Shown one piece after another: positions 6,694-10,919 of a stretch of DNA of 29,912 bases. Within the stretch, counting starts at the first letter, position 1, and every line of letters starts with the position of its first letter. Location: IMG/VR virus record IMGVR_UViG_3300020576_003846, positions 1-29,912 of that record. One strand, 5' to 3'. The notes under the pieces were generated by a model. The model searched no databases and was not told the DNA's origin. It saw only the letters and a program-made list of their open reading frames with translations. Made by a program: the position numbers and the translations under genes. This DNA is from a virus.

Positions 6694-7905
6694 CTATATG
6701 GTAAATATACCTACCGTACTTTTACTTGCTAACGTGTCAGCGTGGACTAAAGCATCTACGAAATGATCATCTTCGTTCTTTGTTTCCCCTGTGAACGCAA
6801 GTAATGACTCTTCAAACTCTCGCGGTAGCGTGCTTGCAAACCCGATATTACCATGCTCAATGCGCCCTTCAACAGGCAGAAACCTTGAAAGTTTACTTTT
6901 TGTTGCAGGCATGCCACGCACATAAATATCAGGCATAGCGCGACGCACGTCGTCAACAATTATACGTTGAAACGCTACATCTTCAATACCGCATTTTTCC
7001 GCACCGTACCTTTGACAAAAAGCGACAATGCGCTGCGTGATTTCGGTGAGTGAAGATTTGCGGAACCGTTCCGCACCAATAACCACACGAGGGCGGTGCT
7101 TGTCTTCTGGAACAGCAAGGGCCACAAGTGCCGTAAAGTCTGCATCTTCTGCCTCACTAATAGCAAGGTCAACACCAACGCAAACGGTGTAGTCTGCATC
7201 TGGTATCATGTGGCGATACCACTCGCGTTTGATTCGTGCACCTTCCGCGTCTACGAATTCAGCTAGCGCCTCTTGCGCAAAGATGCGTGAAGATACTTGG
7301 CTTTTGTATCTATCCAACTCTTCGACTGGCAGATGCGGGTTGTCGTACGAAGTGTAATGATACCTCTTCGCATATTCCGCCGACTGATCCCACAAGCGCC
7401 TAAAGTACTGCCCGCCCTTGTCAGTCTTTGGCGTTGATAGGTGCCACGCCGTACCCTTGCGCTTCATGAGGGTGGGCTGTATTGCCTGCGTCCACGCATC
7501 TTCGTAGTTGCGCGAAATAGCACACTCATCAATTACAACAACATCATATTCACGAGGTCTTATAGCATCATAATTATCGAGGCTCCACAGGTCAAGTTGC
7601 GCACCCGTGACAAATTCAATAGCGTGTTCATTACGTGCGCTGCGTGTGATTGCCGGCAAATAAATATTTATAAAATCATTCATCCATTGTGATAAATATT
7701 TATACTCTGGCGCTATGTAAGCCATCACCTTACCCGCTGCCATGCCCCTCGCTATGGGCGCTCTTGAGCCTCGAGACTTACCGAACTTGCGACCGCACCG
7801 CGCAATAACAAGACGCGCATCGTCGTTATGTTTACCAAAAACGTCGCGCTGTTTTTCGTGGTGATTCGGTTTAACTTCTATCACGCGGGTTCCCTTCGAC
7901 TGCAT
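6694..7905 (-). CDS. terL: Terminase large subunit
   Basis: It has a Walker A-like CGRKFGKS, a Walker B VVVIDE and a C-terminal RNaseH-like nuclease block VGVDLAISEAEDADFTALV. It lies upstream of the portal gene. Confidence 0.85.
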   Translation of the reverse strand: MQSKGTRVIEVKPNHHEKQRDVFGKHNDDARLVIARCGRKFGKSRGSRAPIARGMAAGKVMAYIAPEYKYLSQWMNDFINIYLPAITRSARNEHAIEFVTGAQLDLWSLDNYDAIRPREYDVVVIDECAISRNYEDAWTQAIQPTLMKRKGTAWHLSTPKTDKGGQYFRRLWDQSAEYAKRYHYTSYDNPHLPVEELDRYKSQVSSRIFAQEALAEFVDAEGARIKREWYRHMIPDADYTVCVGVDLAISEAEDADFTALVALAVPEDKHRPRVVIGAERFRKSSLTEITQRIVAFCQRYGAEKCGIEDVAFQRIIVDDVRRAMPDIYVRGMPATKSKLSRFLPVEGRIEHGNIGFASTLPREFEESLLAFTGETKNEDDHFVDALVHADTLASKSTVGIFTI

Positions 7906-7933
7906 CCTTCAGAGTCCATCTATAAATCTCTCT

Positions 7934-8341
7934 TTAGTCTCCAGTAGCTCCATAATTTTTACCTTTATTAGTTAGGTTATAACAGTCCATTAATACAGAG
8001 TAGGGAGCTTCTATCTCCTGAGCTATACTCCTGAGGCCTGGTAGTAACATTAAAGAGGCTGGCTCATTTATCATAAATTCAAAGGATATAGCCCAAAGGA
8101 TAGAGCTATACTGGTCTGAGCCTAAACATCCGCTCCAGGTCTTAGGTAGTCCAAAATCTTGAGGTTTAATCTGTAGGAGGTCTTTATATTTTGCTCCCTC
8201 CTGTAGGGCTTTCTCTAAGGCTCTAAAGTATTTACTATATCTGGAGCTTATTACTGTCTCCTCTAAGCCCTCCAGCGTCTCCTTTGTAATCCCTGTAAGT
8301 TTCTGTTTGTATGGGAATTTATGTTTAATCTCACTAATCAT
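7934..8341 (-). CDS. Hypothetical protein encoded on a compositionally foreign (CpG-poor, lower-GC) island between terS and terL
   Basis: A 135-aa ORF. Its ATG at 8341 overlaps the terS stop by 8 nt. Arg is encoded by AGA here, versus CGN elsewhere in the genome. I recognised no motif. Confidence 0.55.
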   Translation of the reverse strand: MISEIKHKFPYKQKLTGITKETLEGLEETVISSRYSKYFRALEKALQEGAKYKDLLQIKPQDFGLPKTWSGCLGSDQYSSILWAISFEFMINEPASLMLLPGLRSIAQEIEAPYSVLMDCYNLTNKGKNYGATGD

Positions 8342-8669
8342 TTATAACAACGTGTTGGTTTGTGTGTAGTTCTTCAATCCTGTCACTTTGTTGAAGCAGT
8401 TGTTTACCAAGCCATATTTGCATGGTTACATTACCCTCTTCGGCTTTCAAATACTGCATGCGCCGAAGCGAGGCTTTACCCTCTTCCTGTGCCTTTTTAA
8501 TAACGTGGGAAAACCGATCGCGCAAAGTATCGATAGAGCAATTCAAGATTGCCGCCATTTCCTGATACGTACAATGAATTTTTGCAAGTGACGCGAGCAG
8601 CTCGGTATCGATCGCAAGGGGCGGTCTTCCACCTTTATTTTTTGGCGCGGTTTGGGCGGTTGTTTCCAT
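8334..8669 (-). CDS. terS: Terminase small subunit (HTH DNA-binding type)
   Basis: KGGRPPLAIDTELLASLAKIHCTYQEMAAILNCSIDTLRDRF followed by GNVTMQIWLGKQLL matches the small HTH packaging proteins found upstream of terL. It is the first gene of the leftward unit, with AGGAG 8 nt upstream of the ATG. Confidence 0.7.
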   Translation of the reverse strand: METTAQTAPKNKGGRPPLAIDTELLASLAKIHCTYQEMAAILNCSIDTLRDRFSHVIKKAQEEGKASLRRMQYLKAEEGNVTMQIWLGKQLLQQSDRIEELHTNQHVVIND

Positions 8670-9124
8670 AGTCTTAGTGCTCCTTAGCGAATATAATCAT
8701 TGCATAGCAAAAAAGCAAGCAAATTGATAAAATTTTTATCGCCATGATGATTATTTCGTTTTCAAACACAGCAAGCAAAACTTCCTTTTATGACGTTCAT
8801 TATAATTCAGACCTGTTTTTCAGACTTTCTATAATAATTATATTAAATATATTTATATTAAATTGGGTTACAATAAGGAAGTATAATAATAATATTAGAG
8901 AAAGTCTGCAAAACCCCCATTAATCGTAATAAATCATCATGATGTTAAATTTGTTTATATCATCTGGCGCAAAAAATGCCTCTTGCGGAACTTCTATGCC
9001 TATATTCACCATGTTTTTACGACGTTATTTTTAATTTTTACAGAAAAAACCATTTTTTTACCCTTTGTAACCCATTGGTTTCAAACGACTTGTTAAATTT
9101 ATGACGAAAAAACGAAAAAAATAC

Positions 9125-9154
9125 TTGACAAATGCGGAAAATTCAGTAGTTTTG
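9125..9154 (+). promoter_or_regulatory. Candidate early promoter for the rightward operon
   Basis: TTGACA at 9125..9130, a 16-nt spacer, then TAGTTT at 9147..9152. It lies upstream of the AAGGAG RBS (9180..9185) and the ATG at 9192. The -10 element is weak, so this is tentative. Confidence 0.35.
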
Positions 9155-9191
9155 TGGTGTAATAAAAAACACACAACACAAGGAGTTAACA

Positions 9192-9644
9192 ATGAGCACA
9201 ACATACTACAAATTCGAAAACTGCTACCTATGCTGCCAACAAGGACACTTTAGCGTGGTGTTTGGCACCCCAAATGCAACAGTAAATGACCTCGTACGCA
9301 CCCTAAATGAAGGTGGTACCTATGAGTTTGAACAGGCTTATGAACTTATTGAGGCCCGTGAAGTGCCAGAGCCTCCCACGCCGGTATCTGAAGTTGTTGA
9401 AGAATTTTTAAACAACGAAGATATTGAATATAGCGAATACCGCGCATCCACAGGGTCTACATATATAACAGTGGTTAACGAAGATGACGAAGCCGTGGTT
9501 ATCCGCATAGCCGACCACCTCGAGTGCTACCCGCCAAACCGCACCATAGTAGCGCAGGTAACAATTAACAGGAATGAAACTAATCACGCAGAAATTAAAA
9601 CAGCAGTGGCAGCGGTTATTGCCAAGATTGGATACACTTTATGA
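9192..9644 (+). CDS. Hypothetical early protein
   Basis: A 150-aa ORF with a strong AAGGAG RBS. It is the first gene after the control region. No motif recognised. Confidence 0.6.
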   Translation: MSTTYYKFENCYLCCQQGHFSVVFGTPNATVNDLVRTLNEGGTYEFEQAYELIEAREVPEPPTPVSEVVEEFLNNEDIEYSEYRASTGSTYITVVNEDDEAVVIRIADHLECYPPNRTIVAQVTINRNETNHAEIKTAVAAVIAKIGYTL

Positions 9645-9897: not shown

Positions 9898-10449
9898 ATG
9901 AAAAACAATGAAAGCAAGTTATCCGCCGAAGATATAGAACAGGGGCTAACAAATGGAGACAAGTACATACGTAGAGCGTTTGCCAAGCGCACCGACTACA
10001 CACCCACGCCGGAGCAAATCGAACGTGGGCTAACGGACACCAGCGAGTATGTGCGCACAGCGTTTGCCGATCGCAGGGACTACACACCCACGCCGGAGCA
10101 AATCGAACGTGGGCTAACGGACACCAGCGAGTATGTGCGCATTGCTTTTGCCTATCGTGGCGACTACACGCCGACGCCGGAGCAGATCGAACGTGGGCTA
10201 ACGGATGTTGAGTGGAACGTGCGTGTAGAGTTCGCGTGGCGCAGGGACTACACGCCGACGCCGGAGCAGATCGAACGTGGGCTAACGGATGAGAATGCTG
10301 ACGTGCGCCTTGCGTTTGCGGAGCGCACCGACTACACACCCACGCCGGAGCAGATAGAGCGTGGACTAACGGATGTTGAGTGGTTCGTTCGCACAGCGTT
10401 TGCGCTACACGCAAAGCGTGATGCAGAGCAAAGGAAAGAAGATAACTAA
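9898..10449 (+). CDS. Alpha-solenoid-type repeat protein, copy A (six 28-aa HEAT/LRV-like repeats)
   Basis: After MKNNESKLSA the protein is E-x-IE-x-GLT(D/N)-xxxx-(V/I)R-x-(A/E)FA-x-R-x-DYTPTP repeated with an exact 84-bp period. The D-xxxx-VR-x-A-x-A core resembles PBS-lyase/EZ HEAT and LRV repeats. Confidence 0.8.
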   Translation: MKNNESKLSAEDIEQGLTNGDKYIRRAFAKRTDYTPTPEQIERGLTDTSEYVRTAFADRRDYTPTPEQIERGLTDTSEYVRIAFAYRGDYTPTPEQIERGLTDVEWNVRVEFAWRRDYTPTPEQIERGLTDENADVRLAFAERTDYTPTPEQIERGLTDVEWFVRTAFALHAKRDAEQRKEDN

Positions 10450-10478
10450 CTTTATTTCACAAACTACAAGAAGCAATA

Positions 10479-10919
10479 ATGAAAAACAATGAAAGCAAGT
10501 TATCCGCCGAAGATATAGAACGTGGGCTAACAAATGGAGACAAGTACATACGTAGAGCGTTTGCCAAGCGCACCGACTACACGCCGACGCCGGAGCAAAT
10601 CGAACGTGGGCTAACGGATGTTGAGTGGTTCGTTCGCACAGCGTTTGCGGAGCGCACCGACTACACGCCGACGCCGGAGCAAATCGAACGTGGGCTAACG
10701 GATGTTGAGTGGTACGTTCGCACAGCGTTTGCGGGGCGCAGGGACTTCACGCCGACGCCGGAGCAAATAGAACGTGGGCTAACGGATGTTGAGTGGTACG
10801 TGCGTGTAGAGTTCGCGTGGCGCAGGGACTACACGCTGACGCCGGAGCAGATAGAGCGTGGACTAACGGATGTTGAGTGGTTCGTTCGCACAGCGTTTGC
10901 GCTATGCGCAAAAGCGTGA
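10479..10919 (+). CDS. Alpha-solenoid-type repeat protein, copy B (five 28-aa repeats), tandem paralogue of copy A
   Basis: It has the same 5' leader and first 10 codons as copy A and the same repeat architecture, with one unit fewer. An extra A (A4 at 10910..10913 versus A3 at 10413..10415) ends the frame 9 codons earlier than in copy A. Confidence 0.8.
   Translation: MKNNESKLSAEDIERGLTNGDKYIRRAFAKRTDYTPTPEQIERGLTDVEWFVRTAFAERTDYTPTPEQIERGLTDVEWYVRTAFAGRRDFTPTPEQIERGLTDVEWYVRVEFAWRRDYTLTPEQIERGLTDVEWFVRTAFALCAKA

Follow-up and report, generated by a model that had tools for sequence, protein, structure and literature searches.

A gene fragment, apparently from an abundant family of satellite- or plasmid-like elements, lies between the terminase genes of an uncultured phage

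The analysed DNA, a 29,912-nt stretch of an uncultured phage (IMG/VR record IMGVR_UViG_3300020576_003846; hereafter the window), carries a foreign fragment between the genes encoding the small and large terminase subunits, terS and terL. On sequence evidence, its donor was identified as a very abundant family of circular or concatemeric satellite- or plasmid-like elements of about 9-10 kb. The fragment comprises codons ~65-187 of an element gene, here designated X, with the stop codon of X, and runs 35 nt into the following gene; its X part includes a linker and the whole conserved C-terminal helical domain. The best explanation, to which a probability of roughly 0.6 is assigned, is that this 387-nt piece was taken up by illegitimate capture into a terS-terL spacer of about 62 nt, where it is probably a tolerated passenger.

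The region at 7906-8341 (the island) had been described in an earlier note, made from the letters alone, as a CpG-depleted gene inserted between terS and terL. Recounting reproduced its figures exactly: only two CG dinucleotides are present in 7906-8341, at positions 8131 and 8276, and the terL-internal 100 nt at 7801-7900 contain 13. The described richness in A/T and CT/AG was also borne out, as the GC content is 39% (window, 47.7%) and the AG/CT odds ratio is 1.72, compared with 0.82 in the remaining window. The observed/expected (o/e) CpG ratio is 0.12 in the island, compared with 1.17 in the whole window, 1.33 in terL and 1.24 in terS. In a scan of all 436-nt windows with a step of 10 (mean 1.17, sd 0.19, 1st percentile 0.64), the island had the lowest ratio, about 5.5 sd under the mean. 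The Karlin dinucleotide distance between 7919-8306 and the remaining window is 0.46, the maximum among 574 other 388-nt windows being 0.26.

Two further statements of the note were only partly correct. The island ORF does encode its three arginines by AGA (two) and AGG (one), but CGN use elsewhere in the genome was put too strongly, as the window ORFs of at least 150 aa contain 375 CGN and 131 AGR codons. Similarly, the ATG at 8341 does overlap terS by 8 nt, but the compositional switch is not located at the terS stop codon. The foreign DNA is confined to 8305-7919 (387 nt, CpG o/e 0.13), and the stretches 8333-8306 and 7918-7885 are native phage spacer.

The features of the locus are listed in Table 1. 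The terS gene has the native composition and is 97% identical in a sibling contig, L014. The only ORF between terS and terL, designated X', is located on the minus strand and encodes 135 aa; its ATG (8341-8339) lies inside the last codons of terS, the stop codon of which is at 8336-8334, and opens a series of 12 phage codons, MISEIKHKFPYK. In L014, which has an empty site, a short spacer ORF begins at this ATG. At the opposite end of the insert there is a fused ORF of 14 codons, of which the first 11 are derived from the element gene for a 148-aa helix-turn-helix (HTH)/coiled-coil protein (TerS-like, putative) and the remainder from the phage spacer; its overlap with the end of X' is exactly that of the TerS-like gene with X in the elements. 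The Shine-Dalgarno sequence of terL, GAAGGGA at 7897-7891, was left intact by the insertion. The start codon of terL is probably GTG 7884, 6 nt past GAAGGGA, rather than the in-frame ATG 7905, which would lengthen the protein by 7 residues, since terL homologues are 390-396 aa long and an insertion specific to L014 breaks the ATG-7905 frame while GTG 7884 is unaffected.

Table 1. Positions of the features of the terS-terL locus in the window.
Feature	Position	Strand	Evidence
terL, phage large terminase	6694..7884	-	Terminase_6C, Terminase_6N; phrog_2
Native phage spacer downstream of the insertion	7885..7918	-	Identical in L014 and L010
Fused ORF of 14 codons, MELLETKERFIDGL followed by stop	7909..7953	-	Coordinates and element gene order
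Inserted foreign fragment, 387 nt	7919..8305	-	96.6% identity to L005; empty site in L014
Chimeric ORF X', 135 aa (12 phage-derived and 123 element-derived codons)	7934..8341	-	ORF and alignments
Phage-native 5' part of the chimeric ORF	8306..8341	-	Identical sequence in island-free L014
terS, phage small terminase, 111 aa	8334..8669	-	ORF; phrog_309, E 8.9e-5

The origin of the insert in the phage lineage can be followed by comparison with related contigs. L014, from SRR28430727, has a 99% identical terL gene and 97-99% identical flanking DNA, and no island. Its site is uninterrupted, ...CCCATACAA being directly followed by ATGGACTC (read onward as ATGGACTCTGAAGG...), and at this point the window has 387 nt between. 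The more distant relatives L011-13 (terL identity 70%) and L015 (52%) have a terS-like gene followed about 52 nt later by terL, also in the absence of the island. Since all these relatives are island-free, the insertion is derived in the lineage of the window. As judged from these contigs, it is shown to be recent, and the phage population is polymorphic for it. The foreign nature and recent acquisition proposed in the earlier note are thus upheld, as is its expectation that related phages would have terS and terL adjacent.

A second assembly, L010 from SRR32380198, differs from the window at a single base in 4146 nt and has the same terL-side junction; this contig breaks off inside the island. 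Its positions 1-105 correspond to 7906-8010 of the window, and the sole difference, at 7955, results in K in L010, which is the element consensus, and N in the window. Element reads in that sample may have been co-assembled with the phage and so account for both the break and this base, which would be a hint of co-occurrence. The search for further island-bearing phages gave none: the exact 135-aa product is not on record, a 23-mer from the phage side is absent from JGI metagenomes, and all 54 of the 54 JGI matches to an island 28-mer are elements.

At each junction one A is shared with the donor, leaving a 1-nt ambiguity, and neither terminal inverted repeats nor a target-site duplication were found at the island ends. 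These features point to illegitimate end-joining or template switching, rather than to transposition or site-specific integration. The border between the variable N-terminal part and the conserved C-terminal domain of X lies at about codon 65, where the fragment begins. The 135-aa chimera owes its existence to a landing in the sense orientation and in the frame of the phage ATG, an outcome expected by chance in about 1 of 6 cases; such a fusion is unremarkable, yet it is also what selection would favour.

The sibling L014 has an insertion of its own, 74 nt at L014:478-551, which is located about 20 nt downstream of the island site (window position ~7896) and is flanked by CAGT direct repeats. 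One of its frames reads ..KGKVFSCFACGGGM.., and searches of the window, the fetched loci and IMG/VR did not reveal where the insertion came from. That a spacer of about 62 nt has received two independent insertions suggests that this spot is break-prone or tolerant of insertions.

The donor family was recognised through the homologues of X', of which there are 204 with up to 94% identity, nearly all of them longer (about 180-200 aa) and extended N-terminally. Over 388 nt, the island is 96.6% identical to its best DNA match, L005 1732-2119. More than 60 element loci were compared with the window, and in all of them the homologous stretch is limited to 7919-8305; no other part of the 29.9-kb window is similar to the elements. 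The element genes are arranged in the order tyrosine integrase, a 160-190-aa protein, primase-helicase (with DnaG_N or Prim-Pol and DnaB_C domains), ParA, an Arc-like protein, an AlpA-type HTH_17 protein, an optional Endonuclease_7 protein and X, followed by genes for proteins of 148, 66, ~300 (302) and ~320-370 aa. No match to capsid, portal or tail proteins was found in Pfam, PHROG or NCBIfam, with four genes left unassigned, and no host flanks or tRNAs were seen in any element locus. Many of the element contigs are 9.0-10.4 kb long and have terminal overlaps of 123/127 nt, which indicates that the elements are circular; longer contigs consist of two or three non-identical tandem units. In the multi-unit contigs (L001, L008, L071-L075) the units differ in primase type and X length and host DNA is absent; these contigs could be heterogeneous concatemers, tandem arrays or assembly artefacts. 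A literature search revealed no description of this element family.

The transfer appears to have occurred from element to phage, as the X family is broad and the phage has only a fragment. The composition of the island also agrees with this donor. The elements have a GC content of 37-39% and CpG o/e ratios of 0.24-0.34, with a dinucleotide signature of CG 0.25, CA/TG 0.55, TA 1.35 and AG/CT 1.75; the dinucleotide distance of the island is 0.07 to the elements versus 0.46 to the phage. The CpG-poor, AGA/ATA-rich and AG/CT-rich character of the island is therefore the signature of the donor element itself, in line with the suggestion of the earlier note that the donor had very different dinucleotide usage.

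Short palindromes are also strongly depleted in the elements. Counted on both strands against a second-order Markov expectation in loci L002, L017, L020, L029, L032, L035 and L042, the observed/expected numbers are 30/1016 for CTAG, 8/305 for GGCC, 6/92 for GCGC, 30/291 for GATC, 120/762 for GTAC, 0/58 for GATATC, 8/179 for GAGCTC and 2/40 for CAGCTG, so that the ratios for the first four are 0.03, 0.03, 0.07 and 0.10, respectively. Avoidance in the phage is only mild. The pattern in the elements looks like a broad purging of restriction sites, far stronger than in the phage, and such extreme avoidance suggests that the CpG depletion is part of the anti-restriction style of a promiscuous mobile element. 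The odd composition is thus best read as not necessarily the mutational signature of a different host. Since recombination implies co-residence, phage and element would have been present in one cell despite their very different signatures.

The donor looks like a satellite of the PICI or VEIME type (compare PMC9618062) with a plasmid-like ParA. It shares with these a size of ~9-10 kb, the tyrosine integrase, the primase-helicase, the AlpA-type HTH protein, a putative TerS-like gene, the optional nuclease of HNH/EndoVII type and the lack of recognisable capsid and tail genes, and it is likewise recovered as circles or concatemers. It differs from them in the presence of ParA, in its extreme depletion of CpG and palindromes, in the putative status of its TerS, and in that neither an integrated copy nor host flanks were seen, with 185,579 GTDB species genomes containing no copy.

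No copies of X or of the phage terL were found in GTDB genomes or in IMG/VR, and neither the window nor the elements contain tRNAs that could serve as a host clue. All matches of terL to cultured phages are below 31% identity, and megablast of the terS-terL region against GenBank phages gave no match. For the element integrase (L002:4386-5327), the best NCBIfam model is of the archaeal XerA type (150 bits, below the cutoff), followed by XerD with 127, and for the 148-aa protein (L002:1232-1678) the best NCBIfam and PDB sequence matches, which are weak, are to the archaeal Tfx DNA-binding protein. In view of these XerA-type and Tfx matches and of the AGA/ATA-rich codon use, the elements may have either an archaeal or a bacterial host. 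The phage itself has features of bacterial type, namely CHAP, RecT and YqaJ.

Elements that are otherwise collinear differ in whether an Endonuclease_7 gene (145-156 aa) intervenes between the HTH_17 gene and X, as seen by comparing L002:191-661, L008:9526-9996 and L071:8685-9122 with L005 and L016; in this respect the gene behaves like a free-standing homing endonuclease gene. The 148-aa gene that follows X has 1877 homologous protein clusters. Its product has weak matches to HTH_23, Terminase_5, phrog_4102 and phrog_7344 (E 0.001-0.05) and no similarity to the phage TerS. An AlphaFold2 model comprises an N-terminal HTH and two long helices, with Foldseek matches to the HTH alone. This predicted architecture is compatible with a small terminase, and the protein is referred to as TerS-like in this putative sense.

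Protein X is modular and ranges from 124 to 298 aa in the elements. Its conserved C-terminal domain of ~105 aa is preceded by a variable N-terminal part of 0, ~65 or ~150 residues, in some forms with a linker insert. A profile search collected 236 clusters at 50% identity. The N-terminal ~65 to ~160 residues of the homologues are missing from X', and forms of X that naturally consist of the C-terminal domain only also occur in the elements: P0042 (124 aa, L016) and P0319 (132 aa, L076/77), the latter with a different downstream module. AlphaFold2 predicted an all-alpha model for residues ~25-125 of X' (mean pLDDT 81, pTM 0.73), with pLDDT above 90 at residues ~30-125. Neither X nor X' had a significant family match in Pfam, PHROG, NCBIfam or PADLOC; a PDB profile search gave a best E of 0.1, which is not significant, and Foldseek found nothing for X' (best E 0.7 against PDB and 0.6 against BFVD). 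The 135-aa product thus has no recognised motif, curated family or fold, as the earlier note had stated from the letters, but the protein and structure searches that the note proposed revealed that it is far from isolated, its homologues being found in the elements.

Relative to 55 element sequences, the window copy has about three private changes, namely D102G, which affects a near-invariant position, K129N, for which L010 retains K, and one synonymous change. These 2-3 private substitutions are too few for a test of selection on the phage copy and show no sign of purifying selection.

Under the preferred reading, that of a captured passenger, phage DNA and element DNA would have been present together in one cell, and illegitimate recombination with 1-nt microhomology would have pasted the 387-nt X fragment into the terS-terL spacer. 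A sense, in-frame landing behind the ATG that overlaps the terS stop would have produced the chimeric ORF, while the ribosome-binding site and start codon of terL stayed intact. The insert would be transcribed with the terminase operon, and X' may be translated by coupling to terS. Initiation at the X' ATG would need such coupling to terS termination, because a Shine-Dalgarno sequence is absent upstream of ATG 8341; the 8-nt overlap would permit it. The insert is most likely a scar of phage-element co-infection, a tolerated passenger rather than an adapted gene. Against a mere passenger speaks that the fragment keeps precisely the conserved domain of X and that the island-bearing allele, present in at least two assemblies, is no dead end.

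A considerably less probable reading is that the phage has exapted the protein, expressing the X C-terminal domain through terS coupling as a weapon or shield against the element. It could be a dominant-negative protein or decoy that titrates the element X or a partner of X, or else a modulator of the phage's own terminase. The product could be active, since the conserved domain, confidently folded in prediction, is retained completely and X consisting of this domain alone is natural in the elements; the overlap of the ATG with the terS stop also speaks for this reading. In the elements, X is located directly after the AlpA-like regulator and mostly overlaps the TerS-like gene, which makes it plausible that X acts in the late or packaging programme. 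The packaging-interference proteins Ppi of SaPIs and Rpp of PICIs bind the helper TerS. As a working analogy, X would resemble them in being a small protein encoded directly beside a TerS-like gene and co-expressed with it; it is unlike them in having no detected sequence or structural similarity to anything, and some elements have X without the 148-aa gene. Against exaptation are the lack of a Shine-Dalgarno sequence, the non-synonymous nature of two of the three private changes, one of them at a near-invariant Asp, and the allele being polymorphic and not fixed. X is without recognised function, family or fold, and the phage is no more than a putative helper of the element. More doubtful still is the most specific form of this proposal, in which the phage has domesticated the X C-terminal domain as an anti-satellite decoy co-expressed with its terminase and is itself the helper of the element.

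The precedent for such a use of captured DNA is the phage ICP1 of Vibrio cholerae, which with Adi turns functions of its satellite PLE against the satellite (PMC9638900). The present case is similar in that the genome of a lytic-cycle phage includes DNA akin to that of a parasitic element met in the same cell, which may indicate an arms race. It differs in that the functions in ICP1/PLE have been shown experimentally, while here there is DNA transfer alone, of a gene fragment, and the tie between helper and satellite is presumed.

Improbable, though of a different kind, is a reading in which the fragment acts as DNA in cis, as a pac-type site of the element, so that a terminase redirected by the element TerS would also package the phage, or as a decoy. 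Pac-type packaging recognition sites lie in or beside terS in many systems, and SaPIs redirect packaging with their own TerS. The fragment does span the junction into the TerS-like gene of the element and adjoins the terminase genes of the phage, and redirection of packaging by satellites through their own TerS is established (PMC9618062). The TerS-like gene is however represented by 35 nt only and its TerS identity is putative, and no repeat architecture typical of pac sites is present. Nucleotide diversity among 22 element variants is 0.07-0.19 in the fragment versus 0.05-0.25 in the following genes for the 148-, 66- and 302-aa proteins, one sub-window being biased by the anchor 28-mer. Hyper-conservation of the fragment among the elements, synonymous or overall, was thus rejected as indistinguishable from that of the neighbouring genes, and diversity no lower than in the downstream genes gives no support to a special cis-acting site.

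Very unlikely is the proposal that the phage once contained a whole element as an integrated, helper-embedded satellite, of which all but 387 nt were lost by later deletion. Helper-embedded satellites have reportedly been found to integrate in late genes of prophages, which provides a precedent, and the elements encode tyrosine integrases. The remnant is however a single internal collinear segment, far from the integrase and the expected att region, so this model requires two independent deletions with clean ends; moreover, the empty site of L014 is seamless and without an att-like repeat, and a phage contig with a full element was not found. A chimeric assembly of phage and element reads is hardly credible: the elements are abundant in the same sample types and L010 breaks in the island as expected of a repeat in an assembly graph, but in the window phage sequence is present on both sides of the insert, the independent L010, different by one SNP, has the same terL-side junction, and the insert is identical to no sampled element, with 96.6% the best value.

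The class of the insert was also considered. The earlier note had called it a moron, and morons are complete genes, usually with their own promoter and terminator; in lambdoid and HK97-like phages they are extra genes between conserved genes (Hendrix-type mosaicism). The island resembles these in being foreign DNA of deviant composition (CpG o/e 0.12 versus 1.17) precisely between two conserved late genes that are adjacent in relatives, in its absence from close relatives and in its formation by non-homologous recombination. It is unlike them in being a truncated fragment without signals of its own and with a start codon borrowed from the phage spacer. X is truncated at the 5' end, its start and first 12 codons are pre-existing spacer, and 35 nt of the next gene follow. 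Sites resembling promoters or terminators in 7600-9300 are not above shuffled expectation, and the island contains no promoter-like site and one weak terminator-like hairpin (8111-8086). The moron designation was therefore abandoned. The placement for co-transcription with the packaging genes holds, as the island is located between terS and terL, and among the possibilities listed in the note the remnant of a mobile element comes nearest to the truth, the insert being a fragment of an element gene.

Several other classes were rejected. A transposable element, IS or MITE is inconsistent with the single shared A, the lack of inverted repeats and target duplication, and the absence of a transposase ORF. 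A homing endonuclease gene, intron or intein was dismissed since the island is intergenic and has no nuclease domain and no Rfam intron match; the optional Endonuclease_7 gene of the elements is located upstream of X, outside the captured fragment. A non-coding RNA was rejected as there is no Rfam match in 7700-8800.

As an event type, non-homologous capture of foreign DNA in a spacer between phage late genes is ordinary. The present case is unusually fresh, with the donor, the empty site and both junctions identifiable, and therefore provides a clean example of how mosaic joints and chimeric ORFs originate. Its main value is that it ties an uncultured phage physically to an element family that is very abundant and apparently undescribed. 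Because recombination requires a shared cell, the island nominates a phage-element pair, possibly a helper and its satellite, and the donor may be a helper-dependent satellite of this phage. The candidate pair could be followed in wastewater and digester samples. If X' is active, it would offer an entry point to the function of the orphan X family, which stands at the head of the late operon of the elements. Should the decoy proposal be true, this would be the first natural phage counter to packaging piracy by means of a truncated pirate protein, and the phage would be recognised as helper for a hitherto undescribed family of satellites that is globally abundant and restriction-proofed.

Two other parts of the window have distinctive features. 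The AT-rich stretch at 8700-9200 (GC 0.28-0.33) lies between the minus-strand terminase/structural block and a plus-strand early or replication block, and is probably a divergent control region; it contains the few promoter-like matches. Further along, at 9898-10919 on the plus strand, two adjacent paralogous genes encode proteins of 183 and 146 aa built of tandem repeats of ~30 aa with the pattern ..RRDYTPTPEQIERGLTDVEW.VR.AFA.., which match HEAT-repeat models, and the local GC content is 0.60.
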